This document shows, in pieces, positions 11,151-37,116 of a DNA stretch of 64,000 nt. A program made the position numbers and the translations under genes. This DNA comes from Schmidtea nova (lineage: Eukaryota): NCBI GenBank assembly GCA_044892505.1, contig CM097883.1, positions 286,006,001-286,070,000 on the forward strand, written 5' to 3'. Below the pieces are notes generated by a model. That model worked only from the letters and a program-made list of their open reading frames with translations. It did not search any database and was not told the DNA's origin. Position 1 is the stretch's first letter. Each line of letters opens with the position of its first letter.

Positions 11151-11320
11151 CAATGATTAATTTGTGTTAAAATATTAATGTTCATCAGTGATTTTTGTTT
11201 TGAGTTTTCTTGTTTTGTATTATTAAGCCGGTCACATTTTGAATTCTAATAAGCATGTATTCAGATTTTAAATTTTCACATAATTTAACCATAAAGTGAT
11301 TATCGTAAATAAATTATAGA

Positions 11321-11917
11321 ATGACCACCGATTTGGTACAAAGGGAGTTAGAAAAGATGTGGCGGATCCGGAGAGCCCAGGACAAGGAATTGGGTCTCCT
11401 CAAAGCACAATTAGTCAAAGCCGAGGCACAAGTCGCATATTTGCGCAAAAGCTGGTTTGCTCCGGCCAGGATGAAAGAGCAAATCAGTAAAACAAAACGC
11501 GCCCAACAGACTGCAGCCGATTACCAAATGGAATGGGAGGCTACAAAGATAGAACTCCGAAAATGCCTCCATTCCGTAACTGCCTCATATATTGAGAAAG
11601 AACTCAGAGATCAAATCCGTCCGGTCACGTATCAGGAATGGACATCGGGAAAGAAAACCGTAAACTCAGTTGGCACGGATGTCGCTGAGCTAATTGAAAG
11701 CCAAAATGAGCCGGTTCCAGCAGTAATTCCATCCACCTCAACGACAAACGCGCACCAGAAACGCAAGCGCATTGGGCAGAAACGGCGAAGACAAAGGAAA
11801 TTGTTTGCCCAGCGATTACAGAGCCAAGTAGATGGCCTACATCAAATGACCGAAGAAGAATTATTGACGGAAATTTTTCCTCCGGCTGGAGTTTTTTCGG
11901 AACTAATAAAAAATTGA
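11321..11917 (+). CDS. LTR-encoded coiled-coil protein with Arg/Lys-rich motif (solo-LTR homologue)
   Basis: Ungapped hand alignment to the 16935 ORF gives about 50/101 identities; basic motif QKRKRIGQKRRRQRK; preceded by TTATAG|A ATG. Confidence 0.8.
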   Translation: MTTDLVQRELEKMWRIRRAQDKELGLLKAQLVKAEAQVAYLRKSWFAPARMKEQISKTKRAQQTAADYQMEWEATKIELRKCLHSVTASYIEKELRDQIRPVTYQEWTSGKKTVNSVGTDVAELIESQNEPVPAVIPSTSTTNAHQKRKRIGQKRRRQRKLFAQRLQSQVDGLHQMTEEELLTEIFPPAGVFSELIKN

Positions 11918-13374
11918 ATAAATTTTCGTGTTATCTTAAAAATTTTATCGTTCATTTCAATTGATTCAGTAACTTGACAAATGATTAGATAAATGTAGAA
12001 TAAAAGTATAAACTCATCTCACAAAATACCTAATAAAGGTAAATAAATAATTAAGCGAGCATTTGTTAAAACACTTCATGCAAAATGAGCAATGTTAAAG
12101 ATAAATTTTCTAAAAAGATTATTGCGGAATACCTAAGCAGATGATTTAAAGCATAAGTCCTTCTAACGGCAGCAATGAACCCGTAAACATAAATGGGGAG
12201 TAGTACTAGCAATAGTGCTCACCTGCCCATCATTGTTTAACCACCCTGCGCATCACCAACTTGATTATATAGGGAAGTAGTCAAGGGCGCTTGAGTGTAG
12301 AATTGCAATTTTATGCATGATCATGGATGAGGGATCCCTAGTCATTGTTAGAGCATTTTTCTTCTAACCCCTCCATGAACCCAGCACAAAATTTGTACCG
12401 CACACACATACGTAAAAGAAAAGCAAGTTAATAAAAACGTTGTAAAAAATGTATTTTCATAATCCGTTTCAAGTGACATAAAATGATATTAATCATAATT
12501 CAAATGTGTTATATATGGGGCGCGGGTTATATGTGAAATGTTTAACTTTTTATATAATTCATTGACATTTATGTGGTGCGTGTTATACTCCGAAATTTAG
12601 GGTTTATAAAATGCTTGCCGCCATATAACCCTTTCTAAACCCCATAGAAAGTTTATTTAGTAAAGTAACACTTTTTTGATCGGCAACTTTACACAGAAAC
12701 TATGTCATGTCACCGGTTATTATTTTATAATTTGGAAATAAAGTAAAACGTTCCATCGTGGTTAAAATTTCTGAATTACTAAAACTTTGATAAAATTCTA
12801 AATACTAAGAACAGTATTTTCTTTATTATAAAGCGGACACGACTAACCAAGATACGCATTACTACATCGGTCAACAACGTTTGGGCATGAGCAAACGAGT
12901 TAACTCGTTACCGGTCAACAAAGTTTTAAAAAGAGCTATCAGAAAAAAAGTTGTGGCAATCGAAGGATTAAGTACCACTGATTACAAAATTCGAATGAAA
13001 TCAGTCACAATATTTGTGGAGGAAAATTAGAAAAATTATCTTATTTTCATTTTAAAATTATTATGATTAAATAAAAATGTTCTCCCTAAAGTTTTTATTG
13101 AAGGAGGAAATCTTGGGGACATTATTTGCTTTTTTCAGTATTTTATAAATATCTTTTGACTGACTGTCCGTTGTTGAAACTATAACGGTTTCAGAAACTA
13201 AATTATTGGGATTAAAATATTAGTTAAAGCTTTACTTTGAATTGCAACATCATTTGATATTTAATTGACGTATAACTTTAAATCTGAATGTTTATTGCCG
13301 TTTTACTCTGAACGCTACCAATAATTGACATTTCATTGTCTTTAAATAATAAAATGCATTCATTTTTGGGAGAA

Positions 13375-13436
13375 TATATATATATATATATATATAGTGT
13401 ATTTTAGCGTATTTTAGCGTATTTTACTATTTTTTT

Positions 13437-13486
<50 letters not shown>
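13375..13486. repeat. (TA)n microsatellites
   Basis: Two TA runs at ~13375-13396 and ~13440-13486. Confidence 0.95.
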
Positions 13487-13488
<2 letters not shown>

Positions 13489-15104: not shown

Positions 15105-15653
15105 ACTATGATGAAATTCGTAAAGCATACATGATCTTCATTCTGCATTTTTCCTGTCATTTCTACAGATTTAATGCATATTCATCAAATTACTGAAAAA
15201 ATATTTAAACATTAAACTTACTTCATAAAATGGAAAAAAAACAAATAGTTTTCATATATTTAAACAATTTATTAGTTGATTGAATATGTATTATTGTTGG
15301 ATCCACCATTTGGTCCACATTTAGCATAAAAAATAATAATTATAAGAAATAAAATAAGAATAAATTAAAATAAATATAATTATGAAAATATCAGTAAAAA
15401 CGAATTAAAATGTAATAAAGAATATTAATTTTCTATCAAAATTTAGAAGAAAGTAAATAGAAAATGTAAAAGTGTTAAAGAAACAATGATATTTAATTAT
15501 ATTTAAGGAAAAATAAAGAAATAATAAAGAAAAAGAATTACAAAAAATATTAAAAATCAAAATAGCAAATCGCTAGCAATTGACAACAAAATCAATTGAT
15601 TTTAGCGTAATAAAAGTTATTAATTGTGCTGATCTGATGCTCAGCTTCACGCT

Positions 15654-15688
15654 GATTGGTCCAAGCTTTGATCTGATCAGTATATATA
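15654..15688 (+). promoter_or_regulatory. Putative LTR promoter (inverted CCAAT + TATA)
   Basis: GATTGGTCC...GATCAGTATATATA, conserved in the divergent solo LTR; also present at +22012 in the 3' LTR. Confidence 0.55.
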
Positions 15689-15913
15689 CTGATACAGATC
15701 CAGATAATTTTAATGTTTTTTATATGCTTTTTAGTTATTGAGAATATTCAAATTTGAGATCATTCTTAAAACCAAAGGTATGGATTATTGATTGTTTTTA
15801 TTTGTGTAATTTTATTGTGAAGTTCTGACATTGCCATTATGTTTATCCAATTAATAAAATGTTTTTCGAATATGATTTATTTTTTTTTGTGGTTGAATAT
15901 AGAATTAAATCAA

Positions 15914-16202
15914 GCTTCTTCCACTGTGCAATCAGTGGTAGGAGACGACTTTATATATCTATTATATATCTTTTATTGAGCTTCTTCCATCGTGTAATCG
16001 GTGGAAGGAGGCAACATTATGTTGTGATATTAACAATTAGGTTGAAGTATATTTTTATAAACAATTTTTGGGTCGAGCTTCTTCCACTGTGAAATCAGTG
16101 GAAGGAGGCGAATATATATATTATCTATATACCGTATTTATAGTAGAAAATTACGTACGATTTAAGGGGCTCCGATCACCGTGCAATCGGTGAAATGGAG
16201 GC
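15914..16202 (+). other. Four tandem stem-loops with TG(C/T/A)AAT hexaloop
   Basis: Hairpins at 15914-15946, 15980-16012, 16078-16110, 16168-16202; inner stems ACTG/CAGT, ATCG/CGGT, ACTG/CAGT, ACCG/CGGT. Confidence 0.7.
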
Positions 16203-16668
16203 ATACTGTGCCGAGTAGAAACGACTGCTCCGTACAGTTAGGCCGTCCGACCGGTGTAAAGCGCCGTGACGAGGGTAGGAATTCTTATTTAACAATGATT
16301 TTTAACCCTATTTTTCACTGGATAGTATAACCAGTTGAAGTTTTATTTTATAATCGATTTAAATTTTTTGAGTTTATAGTTAAGTTGAGTTTTGATTTTA
16401 GTTGGATACAGATGTAACTGCGATTTGAGTAATCTGATTTTACCTTGAGATTCACAGAGTGTTAGCGTATATTTTTCGATTGTCACATCTGGGGTTTGTG
16501 GGCATAGAGCGGCAGATACACGGTTAAGAATTTGTACAAAATATAATTTTAATAACAACATAAAAATCGATAACTCTAATAACGTAGTGATCTACTACGC
16601 AAGTAACATAGCAGCAATAGGCTATAGGTTCAAACATTCCACATAAATAATTAAACATAATTGCTTAT

Positions 16669-16806
16669 CCTGAACCCTGTACATAGGGCAGTGGATCTTA
16701 GTTTATTTTAATAATTTTCTTATCCTGATTGCTGTATATAGCACAGGCGTAACTAAATAAAATGCATTATGAAATAAATGTATCTGATCGCTGTACATAG
16801 CGACAG
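16669..16806 (+). other. Three bulged stem-loops with GTA(C/T)AT loop
   Basis: CTG-AA-CCCT-GTACAT-AGGG-CAG; CCTG-AT-TGCT-GTATAT-AGCA-CAGG; CTG-A-TCGCT-GTACAT-AGCGA-CAG; counterparts at 10398-10551. Confidence 0.7.
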
Positions 16807-16934
16807 TGTTGAAAGTGTAATAGGTAAATCATTTTCTCTTCCTGAATTCGCAATTAATGATTGTCGAAAGTATGAGAATCGTTCAAAGCAAGACTGCCAA
16901 TTTCATGTTAATAAACCATTTTGAATTTTAGAAA

Positions 16935-17525
16935 ATGTCAGCCAACACAGCAACTAATCAAGCCGAATTAGATAAAGCATGGAGGATAATTCGCAGCCTC
17001 GAAAAGGAAATGCTGCGAAAATCGGAAAAAATAAAAGAAGCCGATGGCATAATCTCCAACCTAAAGAAAAGCTGGTTCAATCCAGAACAAATGAAAATAC
17101 AAATTACAAAAACTCAACGCTCTCAGCGAGCTAACAGCGAATTACAAATGGAATTAGACGCGACGAAGATGGAATTAAAGAAATGCCTAAAATCCGTAAC
17201 GGCATCGTATTTAACTCAAGAGCTCAGCCAGCTCATTCGACCAATCATTTATCAGCATTGGGCTGACGAGAAAGCAGGATGCACAAAAGGAACGAACACC
17301 GAGGAACCCTCTCAGGTTCAAGCAACAACAGCAGCCAGTACACCAAAGAACCCGATAAATCCAGAAGTCAAGAAGAAAAAGAAGAGCAAGATGGGCGCAC
17401 GTCAGCGTCGCTGGAAGAAACAAGTTCTTCAGCAATTGGCTCAACAATCCAAAGAAATTCCAGAAATTGATTTGACCATGAATTTTGCAATATCGGATGA
17501 AGACATTACCAAATACTTTGAATAG
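16935..17525 (+). CDS. LTR-encoded coiled-coil protein with Arg/Lys-rich motif (196 aa)
   Basis: Intact in both LTRs, homologous ORF in the solo LTR; basic motif KKKKKSKMGARQRRWKK; preceded by TTTTAG|AAA ATG. Confidence 0.8.
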   Translation: MSANTATNQAELDKAWRIIRSLEKEMLRKSEKIKEADGIISNLKKSWFNPEQMKIQITKTQRSQRANSELQMELDATKMELKKCLKSVTASYLTQELSQLIRPIIYQHWADEKAGCTKGTNTEEPSQVQATTAASTPKNPINPEVKKKKKSKMGARQRRWKKQVLQQLAQQSKEIPEIDLTMNFAISDEDITKYFE

Positions 17526-18124
17526 AACTTCTGTGATTTAGTATTTTCGCTTATTAAATAATTTTTGTTTGTATTTATTTTATGGTAAAGTATAGAAAAT
17601 AGAGTGATTTATTAAAAAATTTAAAATAATTTAAAGGAAAATATAGAATAAATTAACTATACATTAGAATTAACAATAAGATTAACATAAATCTAATAAA
17701 CAATAGAAGCATTTAAGAGATAATAAATTGTAATTGATGAAGGATTATTTGTTGATATTGTAAAGAAGGGGGCTGAAAGAAAAGTAGAGAGTTGAAATAT
17801 ATTGTAGAGAAAGGGGGCTAAAGAGACATTGAAATGAAAGATAATGGATGCGGATAGATTAAAGTTAAAGCGTAAGTCCTTCTATCGGCAGCGAGACGAA
17901 CCCGTGAACATAAATGGGGAGTAGTTTTAGCAATAGAGCTCACCTGCCCATCATTGTTCAGACACCTTGCACTTTTCCAACTCGATTATTACAGGGAAAT
18001 GATCGAGGGTGCTCGTGTGATATGTAAGCATTTTATGTGAGGTTTTGGATGGAGGAATCCCTAGAGCGTTTTGTTTAATTTACTATTTTTGTTTTAACCC
18101 AATCCGAAACCAACAACATAAATT

Positions 18125-18142
18125 TGGGGGCTCAGCCGGGAT
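18125..18142 (+). promoter_or_regulatory. Primer-binding site, tRNA-Pro type
   Basis: TGGGGGCTCAGCCGGGAT 6 nt after the LTR end; resembles the canonical tRNA-Pro PBS TGGGGGCTCGTCCGGGAT. Confidence 0.85.
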
Positions 18143-18514
18143 GAAAATGGTTTTTGTGCGAAAAGTGAATCCAATAATAACCAGGAGTTTTAAAATGCCC
18201 CTCAACCGAAAATTTAATTGATTTTGTGATTAGAAGTGAAAACAATATCAACAGAGAATTTTTAAAGAAACAATGAGTGAATAAATATAACAACAGACGA
18301 TTAAAAATTGATATTAAAATAAAATAAATAAACACAAATAAATATGTCGGGACGACAATTTGATGAAACAGGGAGAGGTTTAACAACGGAAAACGAAATG
18401 TACCACTACTTTTGACCAACACAAATCGAACAAATAGAGAAACAAGATGTTGAAATTTTTAATTTTTATACCAAATAAAGCAGCAATCATATTAACAATA
18501 TCAATTATTTAGCA

Positions 18515-18976
18515 ATGAACGACAAATTAAAGGAAACAGAGGAATTCCTAAACACGGAAAACAAAACATACGATGAATTATGCGAGAAAATAAGTCGAAT
18601 AAGAGAATCCGGATTCAAAGAACCCATGACACAAACTGAAGAGACAACAGAGCTGATAAAAATAATGGAAAGAGTAGACAAAATAGATATAACTACTAGA
18701 TATAAATGGTACCGAACGAGATTAGAAAATGCTGATGTAAACATAAAATGCAGACAGTTAGAGCAACAATTAACTCCAACATACAACAAGTGGACAATAC
18801 AAGGAACTGAGACAGCTAAGAAATTTAAACTGTGTTACATATGTCGAGAAAGGGAGAATAAAATCATGTTTTTACCTTGTGGACATTTTCGGTTTTGTGG
18901 AATCTGTGCAGCCAACTGCGACAAATGCCCGATGTGCAATCTCGAAATAGACGAAAGAATTACTGTGTATTTATAA
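18515..18976 (+). CDS. Coiled-coil + IAP-type C3HC4 RING protein (no BIR)
   Basis: C-terminal CYIC...FLPCGH..CGICA...CPMC...ITVYL matches IAP/MDM2-type RING ends. Confidence 0.85.
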   Translation: MNDKLKETEEFLNTENKTYDELCEKISRIRESGFKEPMTQTEETTELIKIMERVDKIDITTRYKWYRTRLENADVNIKCRQLEQQLTPTYNKWTIQGTETAKKFKLCYICRERENKIMFLPCGHFRFCGICAANCDKCPMCNLEIDERITVYL

Positions 18977-19019
18977 TAAATAAATGATGAATTTAGTAAT
19001 ATTATTTGTAATAAGTAAA

Positions 19020-20338: not shown

Positions 20339-20339
20339 C

Positions 20340-20590: not shown

Positions 20591-21226
20591 AGTGAGCATT
20601 AGAGTTTGAGTAATAAAAGTAAAGATGATTAAGTAAACTAGAGATTCAGTATGCATACGAGTAGAAATAGGAATAAGAGAAATTAGAGTTGACCGGAAAA
20701 ACCGGTAGAAATAGTGAGAATAATGAATAATGATGAGAAATTAGAGATGACTGGAAAATTTGATAGGAATAGTGAGAATAGTGAGTAATGATGATATAAT
20801 GAATAGTGATAAAATGATAATTGAGTCAGGAGAACTCAAGGGAATTAAAGCGTTTGAGCGACAAATTAAATTGGGAGACTGAGGGAAAAGTAACGAATTT
20901 ATTGGATAACGATAGATAATTATTACGACCATATAGATAATTGTTACCAGTGAATAGATAATTTAAATAGACTTAAATAAAGGGGAAACCGGGAATGGGG
21001 AAACAATGGAAACCCAATAATGAGGAATAAAAGCGCAACGATAACAATGATGTATCGTTGAAGTGACTTTTTAATTTAGATATACGGAACAGAACAAGTC
21101 AAAACAACCAACCAATCAATCAGAATACGATAACAGAGAAACAGAAAAATTGATAAATTAAAGAAAAGTAAACCGAGATCAAGAGCAGTTAAAAATCAAG
21201 AAGTTAATAATTCACAAAGAAATAAA

Positions 21227-27200: not shown

Positions 27201-27565
27201 AAGTAGCAAGAGGAAAACGTCTACAGGGGACAGTAAAAGGAGAGAAACCGTTCACAACTAAAGTACAAGAAAAAGAGGTGAGAATGAGAGAGACGCCAAC
27301 AGTATTGGTTACATCAAACGCAAATATAGGAATGAGGTTTGTAAAAGGAAAACCGGCATTAAAATGTGGTGTTTCTATGTTAGAAACAAATTATCCAGGT
27401 ATTTATGTATCAAGACAAGCAGCACCGAATGCAAAACCTAAGATAGATACTACAGACATCAGATTGCACGTATATTTAAATAACAAATTGGATTTTTATT
27501 TCATAAAGGCCAAGCATCAATGGAAAAAATATACTACGATCTCATTAACAACGACTGTATATTGA
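21227..27565 (+). CDS. Polyprotein part 1: Gag (CA + 3 CCHC) - Ubl-like modules - Bcl-2-like - signal peptide - N-half of glycoprotein
   Basis: 2112 codons; frame open from 21134, first in-frame ATG only at 21890; domains listed separately below. Confidence 0.9.
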   Translation: MRSRAVSATIEKVDNSQRNKSKQRATSATKKTNPKGSKSRRVIVEKSKIENSKLTKTNESETEESASETYDNYNNTEASDNESINTEEVEAEIDNNSNETNNEHTSETRGNESKTTQDSGIEINEHKEEIKDKFTGEPFNGDASKLETFLKEFGIFVEVCKWKPETIRSRIQLYLKDSALDLYLEAKNSDDQLDSWEKIKNFFQQTFGINKVLNEAFTEFSMRKQKVNESNAVYASELKKLAKLAFNQNSPMSPELMAAIFVGGLRRPYIRAQVGCQGCKTIDEALEIANRFELHMIGSEGRIYLAMDTTQNEQAIKINNHIPNSQQLNRPPPQRRNEGNKIQNYRNQNNYSTQGQTKQCQTCGKLGHWQQECFANLNCKKCGRKGHSESRCYLNSCYNCGQPGHMAKNCQQQNNQQRNWSNNGNRQNYTNQQSNGNRQNFENQQSNYNQNKSTTKEIHLLQEVQRLTELINNTPRGNQQTNQQQMNMMRKVESENERLNRESQARHAQEWARIQREDEQKRQERERQPLRINMMRATNQTRDNKEDIEPETNQINPNPEDEENQKEIVQENEEVIEQKMMLVVMPNDHVFRFEYDEKEEVGVLINKVNKTIPGMTKLPREAFLQTEDEAAIKLKPTDIWKDLGVPMNKMKVTVIQEIEENNDEEKSKPVTKVKSRALKIFEEKIKQRKAMEIEKRRGQIEEPKNNDKKEEIPPKNVPDKVEQTAHINMLRNLTREFSDVESDSDVSSLAGDMLKEPENEDNKIEVAKTPENIQIKEDEIQKLLDNALEVIYNEEFIDKKRYRKFIRAVFRMNYKERLQSREIEILSGYVVKLLDEPLHEYIILIEINECSPRIWIKSPCTNEIYRWVEDRLGSSYKNKFIYSGNELVRRATHLVETGIWPGEITTLSICDNKKEENLQEIAKEANMCFEMRIKPQLVERKERILRENLNSLIEQIIQQIDKNREELTKTEYEKLKQCIENIRDTSHTRHSSYKTWKVIAKMGKAMFKRGEIGDLKIKVKLPNEDTKEIEVIADCTIEELVDVINETLLQREKEDELEDDIIIKYNEHVLGDHDERRLYKIGIWDNHQTIHVIRMDDTSRETPKDEKRRQERRREAMHKLRQIIEIYRRWQIQPEWENVLGELNFNERRLTPVEKHWDVKEKCWKAKGGIYEEEFRPEMEDRYEPEIRRICMVTRKVMPTDLDGPETAAIWLETQRRKADELIELLKGNVQGKRRTIKGLAEFFVAGGEDIISLRKVAKAVTEYKRVNEWCPEQLDNIIKKWRNQENAQEPPQKIHLRIIYPDREKEELWVRLTEKIRDVKKRLKYEPPFHLQHQGRSLENDMEILITPAQLELANTLTVDAIAGQPLKLKEKRIKESGDTQNLRKTMQIKPGTSARQYETTSIKIQERTRPQPYDTEEILTDSDDMLEELTNLTKEKGNNIFERVQELPTTSQAINTQDEVEQEIEIEEVNEISEEEARGANTENERFTQEMEKWWEQRNNEPRDVTEETGRETRLIETGTTMDRRPRRRPKTDPTNIINKTKEERRQEKWEVCLKKLNKIAEAKDQEITQKCQGEGWISKTLMEILAIIDPELKKWWRINEISDKAKALHSAIAPILPELIKEKTKSSHLDWQGTTTLIKRLTEDAENDNKYVIAIAYTIYNLLTLSRGNPKSTAIEKHIKNTANIIAKEIEPYVISKGGWETFAKTNQRNSQAKNMKKKFEEILGELEKEKSGTGSGKSSLNLNSIIMMILIWLISVEGATAFEVFDCDQVALGEKYSLRGTEQCKDATPTELKVLHSKQIYHVYQEADLIKTTVNECKIYKTRFAFYCGHRHYSAIVMPGTEREAIMLQGEDCNKLFKHGEVETRDRIKIRGKAGVILQQTYYVAGAITGGEGYCQGATYPIFGVPATNMVVIDTYTVELKAYEAYFDPATGEMKTLSMCKIEASTCQTGMSTLTYIAKANECQLQLLKEAEFDEVQGKIFQEEEDDEVARGKRLQGTVKGEKPFTTKVQEKEVRMRETPTVLVTSNANIGMRFVKGKPALKCGVSMLETNYPGIYVSRQAAPNAKPKIDTTDIRLHVYLNNKLDFYFIKAKHQWKKYTTISLTTTVY
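21635..22456 (+). other. Ty3/gypsy-type Gag capsid and nucleocapsid
   Basis: PFNGDASKLETFLKEF...SWEKIKNFF...Q..NES...Y...L; three zinc knuckles CQTCGKLGHWQQEC, CKKCGRKGHSESRC, CYNCGQPGHMAKNC (22304-22456). Confidence 0.9.
22961..25315 (+). other. Up to four ubiquitin-like modules, three preceded by helical segments
   Basis: Clearest: LKIKVKLPNEDTKEIEVIADCTIEELVDVI...IIIKYNEHVL...LYKIGIWDNHQTIHVI (24269-24510); weaker at ~22961, ~23747, ~25109. Confidence 0.5.
25880..26350 (+). other. Bcl-2-like domain
   Basis: BH2-like EIEPYVISKGGWETFAK (cf. Bcl-xL HLEPWIQENGGWDTFVE), degenerate BH1-like LDWQGTTTLI, BH3-like ISKTLMEILAIID. Confidence 0.7.
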
Positions 27566-28400
27566 ACAGAGAAATATTAAAGACGAAACTAGCAGTAGCA
27601 ATTACAAACCCGGATAGTGCGATGCCATTACTACCACTTAACGAAGGTCATTTTGGAAGAGTAGTTGGAGAAGTTATGTATGTATATATATGCCAAAAGA
27701 CACAAGCAAACCTAGCAACAACGACCAGAATACGACAAGGACAATGTACCAACGAATTGGAAATTGAATATAAAGGGAAAATAAGATATGTACAACCAGT
27801 GACAAGAATCATTAACCCAGTTAGTTTTGAACCAAACCCTTTCAATTGCAGCAATGCATACGGACCATTATATCAGAAACCAGACGGGAATTGGGTCATG
27901 TTTCCGTCAAGATCAGAAGTACAACCACCTAGAGAATTTGAATTGATGCAACTTTCAAAAGGACGAAAATTTTCCAATATAGATGTAAATAACGGAGGAA
28001 TTTACAGTGCAAAAGATCTTGAAGCAGCACGACAAAATATATTATTTCCAGCTAGAAGAGAAGCAGTATTATCTAGCATTGTAACGATAACAGGAGGAAC
28101 AAGTTACCAAGGAGGACCAAATTATGAATTATTATTGTCACCAGCACATTTTAGGAAAGCGACAGAAAATATGATGAAAGCAATGTGGGGACGATTTTTA
28201 ATTTTCGGACAAATGATGGCCGGAATATTAGGTGTAATTTTAATCATACAAATAATACGAGTGATAATCACACAAATGCTAGCATGTTTTGATATTTATA
28301 AAAGAGAAAAGAAAGTTAATTGGAAATTAATAGCAGGATTTTTACCATTTTTAGCAAAAACGATGGTGTTACATGGTCACTCCAAAGATATTCACAGAAT
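26468..28400 (+). other. Env-like glycoprotein of chuvirus G / herpes gB-like (class III) type, split by a -1 shift at ~27493
   Basis: Signal peptide SIIMMILIWLISVEGATA|FEVFDC, conserved Cys pattern (FDC, CKI..R..FYCG, YCQG, YLNNKL, DCILNREIL, GEVMYVYIC), furin-like RGKR (27209-27220), C-terminal W..FLIFG...AG TM helix. Confidence 0.75.
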
Positions 28401-30798
28401 AAAACGATTATTAAAAATACTGGCAAAAATGAAAGGAACAGATGAAGACGTGGGAAGAAAATTCAAAAAGATAATGACAGATGAACAAGCGAGATTACAA
28501 TTAAAAAGCGAAAGAAAAGGATTATGGGAAAGAATAAGAGGAGATAAAACTCAAGATGATTCCAGTGATGACGATGATAATAATGACGACTGTGAAGGAG
28601 GGCAAAGGTATAGAAACCAAGCACCGCAATATAGCGACAAGAATCCAACAGAAGCATGGAAATGTCACGCACCTCCACCAACAATGTACCAAGAACCATT
28701 ACAGGTATCAGGACACAGAGCAATGCAAATGATGCCAATGACAACTTTATATCCAATTATACCAGAAGATTATAAACTAAGGCGATGTAGAAGTATGGAT
28801 CCGCAAGACGATTCACTCACAATTGCAGTCATGTCATCAAATACAGGACCAGTATTAACCACAACCATAGAAATAAATGGAAAAGAAATAGAAGCGATGA
28901 TAGATACAGGAGCAAATATTTCGGCGATAGATATTAAATGGATATCGCAAGAACAGAGACAAGAAATTGAAAGAACAAATGTTCATGTAATAGCATGTAG
29001 TAAAGAAATAGTTGAAGTTGCAGGAAGATGGTGGGTGAAAATACGACACCAAAATAGAGAAATCGAAACCTATGTAGCAGTAATACCAGCTTTAAGTGTA
29101 CCATGTATAATCGGAACAGATTTAATGCCAACACTATTTAAAGAAATAATCATCGACCTTGGAACAATGAGATTAAAGGACAGAACAAGGAAAATAGGTG
29201 CCATGGAAGCAAAAATAATGATACCGGAAGAAAGAATCATGACGAGATCACAAACCATCAGAATAAATATGCTCAGAGCGGAAGAAATTAACACAACTAG
29301 TCAAGTAGAAAGTGAGAAAATCGATGTTGACAAAGAAATCGTACGAAAAGCCAAAGAAATAAACGAAAGATGGGAAATCAGACAAGAAAAAGACGTATTA
29401 TGGGATATACGACAAATAATCAGTGATTACGCACGAGGATGCCCAACCAAACCAATTATAATAGAATTACTAAAGAAAATACCAGAGATACTCTTATTAC
29501 AAGATACAGGAGGTGCAACTGCACTACACAATGCCATAAGTTGGGGTAAAACGGAAAAAGTAAAAGAATTTTTGAAAATAGCAAAAGAAACGAATCAAAA
29601 TCTAGACATTGTAAATCGAGAATTAGAAACGCCAATGATGACAGCAACACTAAAACTAGCAGACAAAGAAATAGTAGATATACTGATAAACGCAGAATTC
29701 AACTGGACAGCTCGGGATAGAAGAGGAAATACAGTTTTAGATCATGCAATAATGAGTGAAAATCAAATGATACTAAAACATATAACAACCAACCTCACAT
29801 GGGAAATCGATGAATTAATCAAAGGAGAAATTATGAAAGAAGCGATTCGGAAGGGAAACACTAAAACAATATGGAAACTAATACAATGGAAATGGCCGAA
29901 TAATAAAACATGGGTATTGGATATAAACAAAGAATTTAGCGAAGGACAGAATGCACTATTGAGATACTTATTAGAGTTTACGTGCGATCAGAGAACGATG
30001 TTAGCACTAATGAATAGAGGAAAAATAAATATTAGTAAAAACGAAGAGGAATATAAACTAGAAGTCGAAAAGAAAGCGTTATTCAGGAAAATTTGGATAT
30101 GGTGTCAAAAACAACTACGCAAAGACATAAGCTACAAAAATCTAAATGATTTCCAAGAAAAGTATAAAACGATAATAAAGGAATACAAGAAGCTAGTGGA
30201 GATATTAAACGATCCAGAAAAATTTAATCAAGCAATAAATCAGAAAGAAGAAGAAAGTAAAAGGATACTCACACCATTGTTCAACGCAAAGATAGATTAC
30301 CAAGAAAGATTAGATGCAATACACAAAAAAGCAAAGGAACTATTACCAGAATTCAAAAATACTAAATACGCCTTGGAAATACTAGGCGCGATAGTAGAAA
30401 AAGTACACGCGTACGCGAAAGGAATATATAATGGAAATGATATAATAACTATAAAAAGAGAAATGCCAGTTGCGTTTTTATTAACAAAAGAAAGAATAAT
30501 GCCGATTCATAGAGCATTGAGAGCAGGAAAAGACAGTAAAGTAATCGAAATCGCAAGAGTAATGCATCAATGTGGATGTGATATGAATATGATAGACGAA
30601 AAAGGAGACACCCTTATGGTATACGCAGCAAGAGCAAAAACAAAAATCAAAGTATTAGAAGAGTTATATAAAGCAGGCGCAGGATTAATCGGAAAAACTG
30701 TCAAAGACAACTCAATATTAGACGTGACATTATTAGGTCCAAACTGGGAAATGTTGAATTTCATTAAAACAATAACAAACCAAGAAGAGATTATTTAA
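27520..30798 (+). CDS. Polyprotein part 2: C-half of glycoprotein + TM - retropepsin - ankyrin repeats
   Basis: 1092 codons in the -1 frame relative to part 1; IEAMIDTGANISAI...IIGTD protease; two ankyrin clusters; no YxDD RT, RNase H or integrase motifs seen. Confidence 0.9.
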   Translation: MEKIYYDLINNDCILNREILKTKLAVAITNPDSAMPLLPLNEGHFGRVVGEVMYVYICQKTQANLATTTRIRQGQCTNELEIEYKGKIRYVQPVTRIINPVSFEPNPFNCSNAYGPLYQKPDGNWVMFPSRSEVQPPREFELMQLSKGRKFSNIDVNNGGIYSAKDLEAARQNILFPARREAVLSSIVTITGGTSYQGGPNYELLLSPAHFRKATENMMKAMWGRFLIFGQMMAGILGVILIIQIIRVIITQMLACFDIYKREKKVNWKLIAGFLPFLAKTMVLHGHSKDIHRIKRLLKILAKMKGTDEDVGRKFKKIMTDEQARLQLKSERKGLWERIRGDKTQDDSSDDDDNNDDCEGGQRYRNQAPQYSDKNPTEAWKCHAPPPTMYQEPLQVSGHRAMQMMPMTTLYPIIPEDYKLRRCRSMDPQDDSLTIAVMSSNTGPVLTTTIEINGKEIEAMIDTGANISAIDIKWISQEQRQEIERTNVHVIACSKEIVEVAGRWWVKIRHQNREIETYVAVIPALSVPCIIGTDLMPTLFKEIIIDLGTMRLKDRTRKIGAMEAKIMIPEERIMTRSQTIRINMLRAEEINTTSQVESEKIDVDKEIVRKAKEINERWEIRQEKDVLWDIRQIISDYARGCPTKPIIIELLKKIPEILLLQDTGGATALHNAISWGKTEKVKEFLKIAKETNQNLDIVNRELETPMMTATLKLADKEIVDILINAEFNWTARDRRGNTVLDHAIMSENQMILKHITTNLTWEIDELIKGEIMKEAIRKGNTKTIWKLIQWKWPNNKTWVLDINKEFSEGQNALLRYLLEFTCDQRTMLALMNRGKINISKNEEEYKLEVEKKALFRKIWIWCQKQLRKDISYKNLNDFQEKYKTIIKEYKKLVEILNDPEKFNQAINQKEEESKRILTPLFNAKIDYQERLDAIHKKAKELLPEFKNTKYALEILGAIVEKVHAYAKGIYNGNDIITIKREMPVAFLLTKERIMPIHRALRAGKDSKVIEIARVMHQCGCDMNMIDEKGDTLMVYAARAKTKIKVLEELYKAGAGLIGKTVKDNSILDVTLLGPNWEMLNFIKTITNQEEII
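28850..29180 (+). other. Retropepsin aspartic protease domain
   Basis: TIEINGKEIEAMIDTGANISAI (DTG at 28903) and CIIGTDL. Confidence 0.9.
29500..29790 (+). other. IkB-like ankyrin repeats (three)
   Basis: GATALHNAI...LDIVNRELETPMMTA...ARDRRGNTVLDHAI parallels IkB-alpha ANK1-3 (..LNFQNNLQQTPLHLA...RDFRGNTPLHLA). Confidence 0.7.
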
Positions 30799-30824
30799 CA
30801 GAAACTGTAAAAGGACCAAGCGTA

Positions 30825-31400
30825 TTGACAATGATGCAAAACATCAAATTGACAGAAGAAGTATTAAACTGGAAAATACCAAATACAAATAAACCAGCAT
30901 TTAAAGTTAACAAGTTTATGGAGAAAAATCGAAATTGGTGTATCCAAAGCGCACTAATAACTTATATATGGCCCGAAATTGTAGAAATTTTCATGAGAAG
31001 AGAAGACCTGAGATTTACAAACAAGCCTAAAGAAACGGAAAAGGTAGTCAAATGGAAAGAACTGATGAGAACACACCTCCAAAGTTGGATAAAAGCCAAG
31101 AAAGAAATTATACAGTATCAGTTAGACAAGAAAAAGATACCCGAAGATATAGAATACCAAGAATTCGAAGCAAGTAATTTAACATCACTATATTATGCAA
31201 AACTAATAGAAACAAGTAATGTCGAGGACGACATTTTTAACGAGCTAGGGAGAGATAATAATACTGACAAAGACGATGATGATAATAATGAAAACAATGA
31301 CGACGAGAGAAATAAAGACGATGATGAACAATCTAAAACAATCATGAAAAGAAAGGAACAAGTTACAGAAGGAATCCATTATTCAGACCAGAAGTATTAA
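30825..31400 (+). CDS. Probable polyprotein part 3 (ankyrin-like start, acidic tail)
   Basis: Frame open from 30768, overlapping the end of part 2 in the -1 frame; ETVKGPSVLTMM echoes the preceding repeat KTVKDNSILDVT; D/N-rich tail; its stop overlaps the next ATG (TAATG). Confidence 0.7.
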   Translation: MTMMQNIKLTEEVLNWKIPNTNKPAFKVNKFMEKNRNWCIQSALITYIWPEIVEIFMRREDLRFTNKPKETEKVVKWKELMRTHLQSWIKAKKEIIQYQLDKKKIPEDIEYQEFEASNLTSLYYAKLIETSNVEDDIFNELGRDNNTDKDDDDNNENNDDERNKDDDEQSKTIMKRKEQVTEGIHYSDQKY

Positions 31401-33364
31401 TGTTCGCAATAATCATAACGCTTATGGGACAATGTGAAGCAACGAAACAAGAGATATCAGTAGAAATGGAAGTACCAATACAAAAAGCATCAACACAAAT
31501 AATGAATTCAAAAGATATTGAACAAGTATGTTGGGTAAAAGAGAATGAAATTCTCGGAGATAACAACCTATTACGATGTATAATACCAAACCCCGAGCGA
31601 AAAACTATAATAATCGACGAAATGGATATGGAAACATGGTATAGAATATGTGTAATCAGAAAACCCAAAGACGCAGAATCACACAAAACAGTCACATGCC
31701 AAGTATACAAGACACCCAAAGTTCGATACGAGTTCGCCAATGGAATAGACCTTCCAGGACCATTTTATTTTAAAATAACAAGAGAACCAGCATCAAGAAA
31801 AGTCTTACAACAACCAAGAACCAAGATAAGAACACCAAGTATAAGGAATACAACGGATAAACCAGAAGCAAACAGAAGAAATACAACGGATAAACCAGAA
31901 CCAAAAAGACGAACGAAACAAACCACAAGAGTAATCTATAATTCCAAGTTGTTATGTATAGCACTTATTATGACAATACTGAAGCGATTGGAAGAAGGAA
32001 TAGAAATGGATACAATGACATTAATAGACATGGAAGAGACACGAATGACAAATCAAAAATGTTGGTTTAGAAACGATGAAAAATTAGAATTAAAGGAATC
32101 AAGAGAAATTCAGAAATTGGAAGCGAGTAAAACGAACAAAGTAATCAAGATAATAAAGATAAAAACAGACAGAATTCATAAACTATGTTTATTGGAAAAA
32201 GAGAGAAACAAGAAAGGAATAACCAATTGTAAAACATTCCAAGCAAGGAAAATAATAACGTTTGCAAGAAAAATGGGGAAAAGAAACAAACAGAATTTCC
32301 AGAAATTAACCATAACGTTAGAAATAACGGGAATAGAACAAAACGTAAACGGAGTATGCTGGAGAAAATACGAGAAAGAAACGAATAAACATAAATCATC
32401 ACAATGTCAAACAATCAGAGGAACAACCGCAGTACAAATAAAAAGCTTAGAAAGAAATCAAACGTACGAAATATGCCTAGTAAAGGAAAATGATCAAATA
32501 ACGAGAGAAGATTTAGAATGCAGAATATACAAAGCACCGAACAGAGTAAAAACCATTAAAGCAATACGAAAGAATAAAAGTCAACAAAAACCGAAGCATA
32601 ACACTACCGAAAGTCAAACAGAACCAGAGAGGAAAACCTCAGCAACACTTATACTGTGGAAATTGGATGACAAAACAGTGGAAATATGTTGGACAATGAT
32701 CAAGAAATACGAAGAAAGACAACCACAACAATGCGAAAAGATGAATAAAGAAGAGGGGATCAGAATTCAGAACCTACAATTGGACAAACAATACGAAATA
32801 TGCGCAATAGAGAAAGCAGACAAATTTGGAAACCAGCAAGAAAAATGTGGAAACTATTATACACCGACAAATACTATGATCAAAGGAAAAATCAAGAAAC
32901 TAACCTTCGGAGAATTGAATCAAACAACGAAACAAATAGAAAACGAGGAAGTAATAATAAATTCTTATGCCAAATGGAAACCAGAAAAAGTAATTCATGA
33001 AGTCAAAAGGAAACAACAAGAACGACAACAATTGGAACTCAAATTAAAAGGACAATATGGACCAATGATCAACCAAAGCAAATTCACCCAAATTAATATT
33101 AACAAGCAAAGAAGAGAACTAATTGGAGTAGGAATACTGGCAGTATGCGTACCAGTAATAATAATACTATCAATAATATGGCTATGGGACATAATAAAAA
33201 AGAAACCAACCAGACAATGGCCAGATATAAAGATTATGAATTGTAAAATCAAGATACCAGAAGAAGTGAAAAAAGAATTCCAAAGAAGAACCAAAGGCAA
33301 AGAATTTTGGAAGCAAATAGAAGACGAGGAGCGACACGATGAAAAAGCAGTGATGATAGTATAG
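31400..33364 (+). CDS. Type I membrane protein with four FN3-like Cys modules (654 aa)
   Basis: N-terminal hydrophobic leader, four repeats of CW...C...I..L....Y.IC....C, TM LIGVGILAVCVPVIIILSIIWLW, short cytoplasmic tail. Confidence 0.75.
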   Translation: MFAIIITLMGQCEATKQEISVEMEVPIQKASTQIMNSKDIEQVCWVKENEILGDNNLLRCIIPNPERKTIIIDEMDMETWYRICVIRKPKDAESHKTVTCQVYKTPKVRYEFANGIDLPGPFYFKITREPASRKVLQQPRTKIRTPSIRNTTDKPEANRRNTTDKPEPKRRTKQTTRVIYNSKLLCIALIMTILKRLEEGIEMDTMTLIDMEETRMTNQKCWFRNDEKLELKESREIQKLEASKTNKVIKIIKIKTDRIHKLCLLEKERNKKGITNCKTFQARKIITFARKMGKRNKQNFQKLTITLEITGIEQNVNGVCWRKYEKETNKHKSSQCQTIRGTTAVQIKSLERNQTYEICLVKENDQITREDLECRIYKAPNRVKTIKAIRKNKSQQKPKHNTTESQTEPERKTSATLILWKLDDKTVEICWTMIKKYEERQPQQCEKMNKEEGIRIQNLQLDKQYEICAIEKADKFGNQQEKCGNYYTPTNTMIKGKIKKLTFGELNQTTKQIENEEVIINSYAKWKPEKVIHEVKRKQQERQQLELKLKGQYGPMINQSKFTQININKQRRELIGVGILAVCVPVIIILSIIWLWDIIKKKPTRQWPDIKIMNCKIKIPEEVKKEFQRRTKGKEFWKQIEDEERHDEKAVMIV

Positions 33365-33484
33365 AGGGTGGGATATGACTGTAAATAATATTGTAAATTA
33401 CAAAGCATTACCGTATATAGTATGGGTATTAGTATTATAGAGTATATAAAAAGAGAAGAGAAAAATAATAATGTATTTTAGAAA

Positions 33485-33739
33485 ATGAATGTACAAGGAG
33501 AAACAACCGAAATGACTTTGACTATGCGATGGAAAGCACAATGTGAAACGTTAGTTCGATCAATTAATGCACTACAGAATCAATTGGTAGAGAAGCAAAA
33601 TATATTAGCAGATTGTTACAACAATATCTTTGAGCAGTTACATAAAATAGAAGAGCAAGAGAATAATAACAGAACTAACCAGAGAGAATCAAAGATTGAG
33701 ACAAACGATGGAAATAAATCAACTAACAAGAAGAGATAA
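33485..33739 (+). CDS. Small coiled-coil protein (84 aa)
   Basis: Heptad-like LVRSINALQNQLVEKQNIL; preceded by TTTTAG|AAA ATG like its neighbours. Confidence 0.55.
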   Translation: MNVQGETTEMTLTMRWKAQCETLVRSINALQNQLVEKQNILADCYNNIFEQLHKIEEQENNNRTNQRESKIETNDGNKSTNKKR

Positions 33740-33913
33740 ATCAGAAGGTCAATGGCTAGATTGGGTAATAAATGGATTAGAGAATGGTATAGAACCAGAT
33801 TCAACGAGCGAACCATAGTCAAATTGTAGCGGAAAATTGTAGATATGTAAAAATAAAACTCTAGAAAAATCAAAACAAAGAACAAATCAATGTATGTATA
33901 TATTATTGTAGAA

Positions 33914-35269
33914 ATGGATAAAGAGGAACGAGCAGTCGAGATTTTGAGAGCAGCCAACAGAAATTGGAACAAGAGATTTGTATGTGGATATTGTAATAAT
34001 TTATTACGGAAACCAAAGCAAACCGCCTGTGGATGTAGATTATGCACTAGATGTGTACAAATGTTAGAGTTAAAAAGAATAACAGAATGTCCAGAATGTA
34101 AAGAAGGACAAATAGTATTAGACGAAACGAGACCAGATAGAGCAACTCAGAGAGAAATCATGAGCATATTAATTGAATGTATAAATCCACCGTGCATATG
34201 GCAAGGACAAATCAGCGAAATTGAAAATCATATAGAAAATTGTGAAGAAAAGAGAAGCGAATGTGAAAAGTGTAAAGAAACGATAATTTTAAAAGACAAA
34301 GAGAAACACAGAGATGAATGCAAAGAGGAAGAAATCGCATGTGAATATTGCGAAATTCGAGAAACAAGGAGAAAAATTGAAGAGGAGCACATCAATATAA
34401 AAGAAGAGAAAATATGCGAACAGTATGTAGGAGTGTGCCCAAACAAATGTGAAATTACCGAAGAAGTGAAATTACGAGAACATTGGGAAAAGTGTACAGA
34501 AATACCAAGAGAATGTCCTTACAACAGATATGGATGCAAGGAAAAGAAGTTTCAACAAAATATGAAACAACATTTAGAAACAGAAGCAATCAATCATATT
34601 GAAATGACAAACAGAACAATTCAGAAATTGGAAAAAGAAGTGGAATCTCATAAAATAATGATGAACCTATTATTAGAAACGAGAGAACAGTTTGAATTAA
34701 CCCGAGGAAGGATGGAAAAGAAAATAATAGCCATCAAGGAATTAGCAAAAGGAATGAAAGTGCAATATAACAAGTTAATACAAGAAATTGATGAGAAAAA
34801 AGATTTACCAATAGCACCGTATGTGTGGAAATTAACGGATTTCCGAAATAAATTGGAAGATGCACGAAGCTTCAAGAAAACTGCGGTACTAAGCCCACCA
34901 TTTTACTTATGGAAAAACGGGGCTAAAGTGAGATTGAAAGTATATCCAAACGGAGATGGGAAAAGTATGGGAAAACACCTATCAATATTTTTTGCGTTTT
35001 GCAAAGGAGAATATGACGATTTAATCGATTGGCCGATAGGAGTAGGAGTAATGATAAAAATCAGGGGTTTAAACGAAACCATAGAAAAGAGATTCACGAC
35101 AGAAAAAGGAGCAGTTACGAGTAACAGACCAACAGAAGAATGTGGATTAGCAAGTGGAGAACCACACTTTGTATTACAAAGCAAGATATGGGGATTATTG
35201 TATGAGGACACCTTATACATAGAAATGGAAAGGAATGAGAAGGCAGATAGAAAAGGATGGTTGGCGTAG
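33914..35269 (+). CDS. TRAF: Full-length TRAF-family protein (RING, TRAF zinc fingers, coiled coil, MATH)
   Basis: CGYC..LL..PKQTACGCRLC..C...CPEC; several CxxC..H..C fingers; YVWKLTDF...SPPFY...LKVYPNGDG..MGKHLSIFF..KGEYDDLIDWP. Likely start ATG 33914 after TTGTAG. Confidence 0.92.
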   Translation: MDKEERAVEILRAANRNWNKRFVCGYCNNLLRKPKQTACGCRLCTRCVQMLELKRITECPECKEGQIVLDETRPDRATQREIMSILIECINPPCIWQGQISEIENHIENCEEKRSECEKCKETIILKDKEKHRDECKEEEIACEYCEIRETRRKIEEEHINIKEEKICEQYVGVCPNKCEITEEVKLREHWEKCTEIPRECPYNRYGCKEKKFQQNMKQHLETEAINHIEMTNRTIQKLEKEVESHKIMMNLLLETREQFELTRGRMEKKIIAIKELAKGMKVQYNKLIQEIDEKKDLPIAPYVWKLTDFRNKLEDARSFKKTAVLSPPFYLWKNGAKVRLKVYPNGDGKSMGKHLSIFFAFCKGEYDDLIDWPIGVGVMIKIRGLNETIEKRFTTEKGAVTSNRPTEECGLASGEPHFVLQSKIWGLLYEDTLYIEMERNEKADRKGWLA

Positions 35270-35374
35270 CAAGAGAAAATGATCGTGTAAATAAACTGTA
35301 CAAAACAATATAAAATGATAAATAAACAAAAATAATAAAAGTAGTCTGATTGAAAATATTTGTAATTATAGAAA

Positions 35375-36478
35375 ATGGGAAACGTCGAAATCAGTTTACA
35401 AGAAGTTACCGCACATCAAGATGAAGTTATTTGTGAGCATTTAGAACAAATTGAAAGTTGGATCCACGCATATTACCACAAACAAAAAGAAGTAGAAAGA
35501 CAAGCCGAACAAATAACAGAAGCCAAAAGATTAAAGCGATTAAGTCAAGATAAAATAGACGAATTATATGAATTATTAGAGAAACAAAAAGAATATTATA
35601 AAAAGATGATGAAAGAACGACGAGAAGAAAGAGAACGAGAACGAACAGAAATGGAACGGAAAATGTACTCCATTACCGAGCAAGCAAGATATTGGAAAAA
35701 AGAAGCGAAAGAATCTTATACGAAAGCAAGAGAAATAATTGAAAGAACGGCGTACAGCGATGATTGGAAATTATTTGAAGAAATCGATAAATTAAAAGAG
35801 GAATTAGAACAGAAAACCTATCAGGAAATATCGAGCAAAAAATGGAATAAAAAGAGACAACAATTCATCAGAGAGCAAGCAGGAAAAATTAAACAACTTA
35901 TGCACCAGATTGAAAGGTCGGAAAGAGAATTATATTTCAGTAAACAACAATCAGATGCAAACCTCAGAGCAGGGATGCAGAAAGAGGAAGATATGAAGCG
36001 CGATATTAATGGTTATCAAGGAGTAATCACTCAAAAGAAGATAGAATTAAAGAAAACTAAAGAAAGATTAGAAGAAGCAAAACAAAGCTATGAAGAAAAT
36101 TTATTAAAATTAGAGGAAGCAAAACAAAGCTATGAGGAAAATTTATTAAATTTAACCAAAGAAAATGAAGAGTTGAAACAAAAACTGATACAAAAATTAA
36201 CACCACCAAAAGAGACAGATATCACCAAAGCAGTAATAAAAATGATGGAAGAGGAAGAGAAAAACAATAAAATAACAGAATTAGAAAAACAGATCGAAGC
36301 ATTAACAGAACAATCAAATTATTTAGAATACCTGTTAGACGAAGAAATTCAATTGTCACACTTCTATCGAGATGAAGTAACAATGTGGAGAAACACGATA
36401 GTATGGTTACCACTCCCTACGAATCAAGTGGAACCTCAAGATGAAGGTTTTCACGAACCCAATGAGTCGTTAGTTTAA
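35375..36478 (+). CDS. Long coiled-coil protein (367 aa)
   Basis: E/K/Q-rich heptads, internal duplication LEEAKQSYEENLL x2; TTATAG|AAA ATG. Confidence 0.8.
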   Translation: MGNVEISLQEVTAHQDEVICEHLEQIESWIHAYYHKQKEVERQAEQITEAKRLKRLSQDKIDELYELLEKQKEYYKKMMKERREERERERTEMERKMYSITEQARYWKKEAKESYTKAREIIERTAYSDDWKLFEEIDKLKEELEQKTYQEISSKKWNKKRQQFIREQAGKIKQLMHQIERSERELYFSKQQSDANLRAGMQKEEDMKRDINGYQGVITQKKIELKKTKERLEEAKQSYEENLLKLEEAKQSYEENLLNLTKENEELKQKLIQKLTPPKETDITKAVIKMMEEEEKNNKITELEKQIEALTEQSNYLEYLLDEEIQLSHFYRDEVTMWRNTIVWLPLPTNQVEPQDEGFHEPNESLV

Positions 36479-36552
36479 AGAGAAGCGAAAATTCTTTGTA
36501 AATATCTGTAACATAACAATGTCAAACTGTATTGACAAATTTGTAAAGTGAA

Positions 36553-37116
36553 ATGAAGAAGCTCGCAATACTGATAATCCTAAATGTAATCGAAATCACC
36601 CAACAAAGAGAAGACCGTCCGATATCAAAAGAAAATCTACAAGTCTTACCCGAGAAAATCTATAAAGAAATAGATGATCTATTAAAAGAAGCAACTAAAG
36701 AAATTTCTCAAATTCAATTGTCAACAGCACCTAAACCAGTATCAACGCAACAAACCCTGTGCAAAATCAATAACAAATTAGAGAAGATTCGAAAAACCTT
36801 AAAAGAAAGTAAAGAAACTATAAAGAATTTACATCGAGCAGAAATTCAATACCAAGAGAGATGGATCGTTGCGATTATAATCGTATTAACAATTAGTACA
36901 ACAACCTGCGCAATTACCATTCTCATCGCAGTATACAGAATAAAAGTTCTTAAACAAAAACAATCAATCATCAATCAAACAACAGCATATGATGACAATG
37001 CCCGAAGACAAATGAGAAATCAGTTCAACAGAATACGAACCCAATACGAGTTACCAGCAATTCCACAGAACCAGTCCAATCCAGTGCGAGTTATGAACTA
37101 TTTGTATAAACCATAA
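36553..37116 (+). CDS. Small type I membrane protein (187 aa)
   Basis: Leader MKKLAILIILNVI, helical ectodomain, TM WIVAIIIVLTISTTTCAITILIAVY. Confidence 0.7.
   Translation: MKKLAILIILNVIEITQQREDRPISKENLQVLPEKIYKEIDDLLKEATKEISQIQLSTAPKPVSTQQTLCKINNKLEKIRKTLKESKETIKNLHRAEIQYQERWIVAIIIVLTISTTTCAITILIAVYRIKVLKQKQSIINQTTAYDDNARRQMRNQFNRIRTQYELPAIPQNQSNPVRVMNYLYKP

Follow-up and report, generated by a model that had tools for sequence, protein, structure and literature searches.

How a mobile element that carries several separate genes on one strand, behind a single long terminal repeat (LTR), might express each of them is the question raised by the locus described here. The window analyzed is a stretch of 64,000 nucleotides from Schmidtea nova (GenBank assembly GCA_044892505.1, contig CM097883.1, positions 286,006,001 to 286,070,000 of the forward strand); coordinates refer to this window unless preceded by a locus identifier, and the features given for the element and for a neighboring solo LTR lie on its forward (+) strand. 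It contains a Ty3/gypsy LTR element of 24.8 kb (15295-40131), which we term Burro-like because its architecture matches the published description of these elements. An earlier note, made from the letters of this DNA, had pointed to T-rich TAG trinucleotides ahead of almost every accessory open reading frame (ORF), and had proposed either a set of subgenomic mRNAs spliced from one LTR leader or spliced-leader (SL) trans-splicing of a polycistronic RNA. The comparative sequence evidence assembled below makes it probable, if only just, that one short non-coding LTR leader, ending at a donor at 15778, is cis-spliced onto each acceptor, the same leader serving all of them.

To interpret the acceptor-like sites, the separate genes must be distinguished from fragments. 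The element is bounded by a 5' LTR of family A with TG..CA ends (15295..18118; 2824 nt) and a 3' LTR (37307..40131; 2825 nt), which are 99.86% identical over 2826 aligned nt, and is flanked by a 4-bp target duplication. Directly after the 5' LTR lies a primer-binding-site-like sequence (18123..18142), a motif also present in families B and G. A gag-env-protease-ankyrin polyprotein region (21134..33364) follows, broken here into four pieces with ATG ORFs at 21890, 27520, 30831 and 31400. Pfam domains in the long ORFs are CCHC, the Monjiviricetes fusion glycoprotein (PF24664), RVP and Ank, with the env-like PF24664 domain placed between zf-CCHC and RVP; a frameshift splits the region in this copy, and it is continuous in family B. 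Because full family-B elements show the same gene order with one continuous polyprotein frame, and a protease-reverse transcriptase-RNase H-integrase (PR-RT-RH-IN) order, the four ORFs are pieces of the polyprotein, and we reject those at 27520, 30831 and 31400 as accessory genes. The family-B frame therefore leaves only six ORFs of the element as separate genes.

Each of these six is preceded by an acceptor-like site, a YAG (once AAG) 0-6 nt upstream of its start, and a further one lies about 500 nt before the gag AUG. Inside the LTR, an AG ending at 16931 precedes a 196-aa ORF (acceptor and ORF, 16906..17525; start 16935, repeated at 38947) in which no Pfam family scores above the cut-off, and an AG ending at 18512 precedes an IAP-type RING ORF of 153 aa (18487..18976; zf-C3HC4_3). 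The remaining four form a 3' cassette: an 84-aa ORF behind an AG ending at 33481 (33456..33739), where TTTAG is kept in families A, B and I with a spacer of 2 or 3 nt; a TRAF ORF with MATH and zf-TRAF domains behind an AG ending at 33911 (33886..35269), where TTGTAG is kept in B and I with a spacer of 1-3 nt; a coiled-coil-like ORF of 367 aa, with no Pfam family, behind an AG ending at 35371 (35346..36478), where TGTAATTATAG is identical in A, B and I; and a 187-aa ORF behind a weak site (36523..37116), an AAG ending at 36548 rather than a YAG, which is kept together with an upstream TATTGAC in A, B and I. The TRAF frame has an earlier ATG at 33890, but its next one, at 33914, is the homologue of the start in the sister families. 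No relatives of the LTR ORF or of the 367-aa ORF were retrieved from the protein set, JGI metagenomes or IMG/VR. TRAF/MATH, RING and ankyrin cargo are all present in this element (Pfam: MATH, zf-TRAF, RING, Ank).

The seven ATG contexts and both GT dinucleotides quoted in the earlier note are all located where it placed them, and a TAG 1-3 nt before the ATG was found at five of the six separate ORFs (16935, 18515, 33485, 33914 and 35375), the exception being 36553, with its AAG 4 nt upstream. On the same strand of the element this arrangement occurs at 24 of 498 other ATGs (binomial P 1.5e-6 for five of six); when the four polyprotein-fragment starts are counted too, none of which has the TAG, the proportion becomes 5/10 (P 5e-5). 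A control set of 252 first ATGs, drawn from the other frames that are 30 aa or longer, has TAG at 8, TAA at 32 and TGA at 13; since TAA and TGA outnumber TAG there, ascertainment through the stop codons used in calling ORFs does not explain a pattern confined to TAG. The description of these sites as T-rich is borne out at four of the six by a strict rule (at least three T in the 5 nt before the YAG) and fails at the other two. It was correctly observed that the TAGs are not stops of the preceding ORFs, yet three of them (16929, 33479 and 35369) are in-frame stops of the ORF that each precedes. Two acceptor-like sites not previously listed are those ending at 21079 (gag) and at 10658. The latter, and the ORF at 11321 that had been listed together with the others, belong instead to a solo LTR of sister family B (9223-12386), which has its own 4-bp target duplication and matches the LTRs of full family-B elements; its parts include a TATA box (9600), a donor candidate (9760), the acceptor at 10658 with a first ORF, and an acceptor at 11319 with a second (11321).

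Protein and family searches of this genome supplied a sample of related lineages, and ORF starts were read in pieces of them. In six lineages a YAG stands 0-6 nt before 26 of 30 ORF starts; for ATGs at large in these loci the figure is 521 of 2700. In the count of starts, which are homologues and so not independent, two were taken as second ATGs (33914, and 1908 in L071), decayed family-I ORFs and variant ORFs of two G copies are omitted, and the last ORF of family I is counted on a CAG other than the homologous site. The four misses comprise two AAG sites, one family-G ORF with a YAG 17 nt upstream, and the family-G TRAF ORF, where TTTTAG precedes the second ATG. The pattern can be followed into relatives whose proteins are only about 30% identical, with C and T exchanged and the spacer varying: the RING ORF has a YAG 0-3 nt before its ATG in families B, I and G, although the G protein is only 28-29% identical. 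For the LTR ORF, diverged LTRs were picked by protein similarity rather than by the acceptor motif, and of 23 loci, 20 have TT[CT]AG at a distance of exactly 5 nt from the homologous ATG; among 60 further LTRs the same holds for 37 of the 47 with a called start (33 CAG, 4 TAG, 12 different spacers). A fixed AG, with free exchange of C and T before it and free change after it, is, on this comparison of sequences, how a 3' splice site followed by an untranslated exon behaves. As CAG is not a stop, the motif cannot be read as a stop codon, and as the spacer phase differs among homologues (0-5 nt), no in-frame AUG from the leader is needed.

The more distant lineages vary in what they place behind such sites. 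Family G (L136-L141) lacks gag and env and has a longer 3' cassette comprising TRAF, a BIR-RING IAP and five other ORFs, nearly all preceded by YAG; some G copies appear in tandem, and the BIR domain occurs only in this family. Lineages C/E and D/F have one accessory ORF of 468-482 aa with no Pfam family (env about 30% identical), with its own internal CCAAT-TATA promoter (L121:3950-4219; L117:3660-3954); CCAAT, TATA, G/GTAATT (the slash here and below marking the boundary at which a donor would be cut), about 120 nt and TTTTAG precede it in that order, a putative intron in the 5' untranslated region.

The gag gene illustrates the pattern at a distance. The candidate acceptor, a T-rich TAG ending at 21079 (21054..21079), is kept in 3/3 of family B and is also seen in G. 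In the window, the 500 nt leading up to it contain 15 ATGs and the next 500 nt contain none (an ATG-free tract in 4 of 5000 shuffles); family B has 8-9 before and 0 after. The first ATG lies at least 512 nt past the acceptor in 30 of 30 family-A copies; 29 of these ATGs are in frame with gag and shortly precede the capsid motif. An mRNA joining the leader to 21080 would thus present gag as its first AUG; on unspliced RNA, 5.4 kb and two ORFs lie in front of gag. An AUG supplied by an SL at 21080 was considered and rejected as the gag start, that frame closing after 17 codons in both A and B. The gag frame is itself open upstream of its first AUG (21134-21890), over 148 codons in 29 of 30 A copies and 173-194 in B (L071:6065-6656); in lineages C-F (gag starts in L112, L116, L120 and L125) some 30 upstream codons are open with synonymous changes. 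Near the start of this open frame (21149), an ATT in a strong context (followed by G, with A at -3) is kept in four lineages, which suggests from sequence an AUU-initiated Gag with a longer N-terminus.

A single leader requires a donor, and the LTR offers one behind a promoter-like block (15655..15700), with ATTGG (reverse CCAAT) at 15655 and TATA at 15681, kept across families A, B and H/I and putatively functional. At 15778..15783, AAAG/GTATGG is the main splice-donor candidate, at the end of a putative non-coding leader exon. AG/GTAT is present in all 30 family-A LTR loci (which include both LTRs of some insertions) after a hypervariable leader that ends 89-166 nt from the TATA box; the leader changes in length and sequence while the donor stays invariant. 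Two sets of H/I LTRs, of 20 and 60, include 17 and 43 loci whose promoter is recognizable; of these, 14 and 35, respectively, have G/GTA followed by a T-rich run. The nomination of 15778 as the leader donor is in this way upheld at the level of sequence, the site coinciding with the one conserved island behind the promoter (30/30 in A; 35/43 of the distant LTRs). The second donor that had been nominated, GT at 17872, did not hold up as a general one: it is GT in 30/30 A LTRs, AT in 13/13 sister-family B LTRs and GTAAG in 17/20 H/I LTRs, and borders a U5 block (17872..18070) that is conserved and predicted to be structured, so that on sequence grounds it may be used in some families but not generally.

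That block, near the 3' end of the LTR (17870-18070; 12146-12341 in the solo LTR), is the most conserved part of the LTR and folds into two predicted stem-loop domains, in which 15 of 31 predicted pairs show double (compensatory) change over 24 LTRs; it has no Rfam match, the Rfam scan giving two matches only, both on a (TA)n run and below the gathering score. The modeled fold makes it a candidate packaging or export element, and by analogy the LTR ORF, with its basic C-terminus, and this block would be candidates for a Rev/Rex-like export system. Downstream of the donor, AATAAA with a T-rich run (15853..15858) is a possible LTR poly(A) signal judged by its letters, and ATTAAA with a T-rich run at 17553 is a second candidate. 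Just downstream of the donor and the first AATAAA, in a TAR-like position, a hairpin with a TGNAAT loop is repeated three to four times (15910-16210 and 37922-38220).

Under the favored scheme of cis-splicing from the LTR leader, transcription would start just after the TATA box, at about 15705; the spliceosome would join the donor at 15778 to 16932, 18513, 21080, 33482, 33912, 35372 or 36549; every ORF would thereby stand first among the long ORFs on a capped mRNA of its own; and the unspliced RNA would serve as genome. More speculatively, U1 bound at the donor might, as in foamy viruses, also suppress the poly(A) site that follows shortly after it in the LTR, and UGUA-rich spacers in the 3' cassette might mark internal 3' ends or Pumilio sites. 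Of the two mechanisms proposed at the outset, subgenomic mRNAs from one LTR leader gain from the conserved donor and the splice-site-like acceptors and lose 17872 as a second donor; SL trans-splicing is the less probable mechanism at the acceptors inside the LTR and ahead of RING and gag, and a real, if doubtful, possibility at the 3' cassette. A conserved donor upstream of the acceptors argues for cis- over SL-splicing, being what separates the two (Conrad 1993, as cited in PMC8629364).

Several observations weigh against this scheme. The family-B GT at the corresponding place (9760) is weaker, AAC/GTAATT or GAA/GTAATT without an exonic AG, and the family-A leader of this copy contains two short upstream AUG frames. 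To reach the 3' cassette, introns of 17.7-20.8 kb would have to skip several acceptors, and the conserved donor might be confined to the acceptors closest to it, or act in poly(A) control alone. The cassette spacers are operon-sized and UGUA-rich, two of the four with AATAAA, and all splice sites were called by motif and conservation. In contigs of unrecorded kind (four runs from one study), which cover the element evenly, no joint of donor and acceptor and no common leader-like loose end was found among the matches listed (15 of 69 and 15 of 23), which is evidence neither way. Nor was a retrocopied spliced form found in six genome pattern searches, 30 A and 83 H/I LTR loci and 10 shortened copies. 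The family-A junction patterns gave 0 and 1 match, the one match being a host gene; those of family B gave 0 matches, without a positive-control count; and those of H/I gave 11 and 9 matches, none of them a junction. L233, the one short LTR among the 60 further ones, was rejected as a spliced copy, its deletion lying inside the first ORF, and so were the 10 shortened family-A copies as splice products, their deletion ends overlapping by 4-20 nt and none falling at an acceptor.

Two UGUA elements constitute the CFIm signal for 3' processing, and the four spacers of the 3' cassette (33365..36552; 74-174 nt) show tandem TGTA right after each stop, with AATAAA in 2 of the 4 in this copy. TGTA occurs 16 times in 461 spacer nt as against 53 times in 14754 coding nt. 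Each spacer also contains TGTAHATA (33380, 33895, 35286 and 36497), four copies in all, a number reached by none of 5000 shuffles; the motifs are conserved in families B and I. The same motif, which we take to be of Pumilio type in RNA and of forkhead type in DNA, recurs in three hairpins upstream of the LTR ORF (16678, 16733 and 16792); of the 9 copies in the element, 7 lie outside coding sequence. The first spacer has in addition two elements conserved in A, B and I, a GG(C/T)GG box and a TGG/GTAT that lies some 55 nt upstream of the first acceptor.

These spacers invite a mixed mode of expression, in which the acceptors inside the LTR and ahead of RING and gag draw on the LTR donor and the cassette (the 84-aa, TRAF, 367-aa and 187-aa ORFs) is an operon resolved by 3' cleavage in each spacer and then by trans-splicing of the host SL at the next AG. 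We count this as a real possibility, although we doubt it. It needs no introns of 18-21 kb; the conserved tandem TGTA and the AATAAA of two A spacers suit it; the spacer lengths are near the mode of about 100 nt in flatworm operons (PMC8629364), SL trans-splicing is reported from two Schmidtea species (PMC10899757), and flatworm acceptors are often used by both cis and trans splicing (PMC12582326). Flatworm SLs, however, end in AUG (PMC12582326), yet the spacer phase shifts freely among homologues, and in two cases the SL AUG would open an out-of-frame reading of 56 or 31 codons, a weak point since hosts tolerate such frames. The genome RNA would also have to read through all four spacers, and the acceptors are not donor-free, a conserved cis donor lying upstream in the LTR. 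The fuller programme that adds an AUU-extended Gag to cis-splicing of the 5' genes and to SL trans-splicing of a four-gene 3' operon of captured signaling genes, a hybrid for which no equivalent has been described, is somewhat more doubtful.

An internal promoter near the end of the polyprotein, with a short leader and a local donor for the cassette as in foamy viruses, and the LTR donor confined to the 5' genes, seems to us unlikely. The internal CCAAT-TATA-donor-acceptor units of lineages C/E and D/F provide a precedent, and the GG(C/T)GG box and TGG/GTAT of the first spacer could be its parts; but no ATTGG-TATA block like that of the LTR lies in or before this spacer, only about 60 nt separate the polyprotein stop from the candidate donor, and the conserved block may be an RNA hairpin. 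It is quite improbable that the motif is instead a signal for translation or transcription start (an A-rich Kozak context with a stop that closes the frames ahead of it, reinitiation, or an initiator). In its favor, starts are commonly preceded by AAA, the three in-frame TAGs would fit, and TTAGT/TCAGT resembles an initiator element; against this, CAG replaces TAG in many homologues (33 CAG to 4 TAG in the further LTRs) while TAA and TGA never do, the distance to the ATG ranges from 0-6 nt to about 500 nt for gag, and the conserved donor is left unexplained. A chance pattern in AT-rich DNA is scarcely credible: TAG and runs of T are common at 30-35% GC, and two starts were chosen as second ATGs, but P is about 1e-5 to 1e-6 in the window, and the persistence of the motif across lineages with diverged flanks refutes it.

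Other features concern the element as a mobile unit and its surroundings. No Pfam match to RT, RNase H or integrase was found within 15295-40131, and RT-RH-IN is also missing in 5 other family-A copies spanning that site (near 29230). The gap was rejected as a spliced-out intron; it shows no GT..AG ends against family B, although divergence blurs the ends. By architecture, family A is read as a non-autonomous member of the Burro-like Ty3/gypsy elements. It is young (the LTR identity of 99.86%) and abundant (401 first-look candidates), keeps gag, env, protease and all accessory genes, and probably depends on an autonomous sister family for its mobilization. Some 16 tandem copies of a 41-45 nt unit, followed by four copies of another 41-nt unit, occupy the gag leader region (19600-20550); families B and G have tandem arrays of different sequence at the same place. 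A conserved non-coding block after the RING ORF (19210-19370), common to families A, B and G (L071:4520-4680, L137:5120-5230), is from its sequence a candidate enhancer or RNA element. Immediately upstream of the insertion site, 13940-14700 reads as a decayed integrase end and the LTR-like start of another gypsy-type element, and farther downstream lies a piggyBac-type transposase ORF of 498 aa (50317-51813; DDE_Tnp_1_7, E 2.4e-70).

Subgenomic splicing is textbook for complex retroviruses, among them HIV-1 and walleye dermal sarcoma virus, and for the env gene of errantiviruses (Drosophila gypsy, ZAM), which are Ty3/gypsy elements too and express an extra ORF by joining a 5' leader to an acceptor farther along. 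The present element resembles complex retroviruses in having one acceptor per gene, known here from sequence alone, and differs in being Ty3/gypsy (by the PR-RT-RH-IN order in B), in a gag that itself appears to need a splice, and in spreading 7-9 acceptors over 21 kb among genes that do not overlap. Whereas errantiviruses splice one gene, env lies here inside the polyprotein and the acceptors are on many other genes. One putative major donor in the R region of the LTR, upstream of a possible poly(A) signal, parallels that of foamy viruses (PMC3694450). Same-strand genes about 100 nt apart, with an acceptor just before each start, in a genus with SL, recall flatworm and nematode SL operons (PMC8629364, PMC12582326), from which the conserved cis donor in the element's own LTR sets it apart. 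Conserved spliceosomal snRNAs are described in S. mediterranea, with no splice-site consensus in the portion available (PMC6312358).

The element family is already known. Burro, or GYPSM1, denotes giant Ty3/gypsy elements of dugesiid planarians (PMC6431247), with which ours shares a size of about 25-30 kb, long LTRs, one huge polyprotein, a CCHC Gag and a mononegavirus-like env between gag and protease, as well as ankyrin repeats, TRAF/MATH and RING/BIR cargo and accessory ORFs (PMC6431247; PMC13465017 on the Burro1 B-IAP). The match alone would point to a dugesiid planarian as the likely host. This copy and the 5 other family-A copies that cover the site differ in lacking RT-RH-IN; TRAF placed in a four-gene 3' cassette and ORFs inside the LTR are further differences. 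Expression of a Ty3/gypsy element through 7-9 acceptors, gag included, was not found in the literature: a search that did not extend to the 2026 Burro1 paper (Lee 2026), Rossi 2014 and the supplements of Grohme 2018 and Lee 2026 yielded no account of splicing in Burro or of its use of an SL, nor of LTR retrotransposons with several acceptors, the available portion of the 2019 review (PMC6431247) has no passage on the expression of accessory ORFs, and PMC8532177 has nothing on splicing or isoforms.

Burro elements are abundant in planarian genomes, and Burro1 is reported to support stem-cell survival via its IAP cargo (PMC13465017, citing Lee 2026). One promoter for up to nine separate genes in an element of 25-30 kb is the arrangement suggested here, and the map gives exact candidate junctions. 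Promoter, donor, acceptors and ORFs all persist in solo LTRs, which may therefore act as small units of expression and may also donate a leader exon to neighboring host genes. If an SL is used, this would be a mobile element built around the operon machinery of its host; if cis-splicing holds, a Ty3/gypsy lineage would have independently reached the solution of complex retroviruses on a larger scale, which would support the view of Burro as an endogenous virus.

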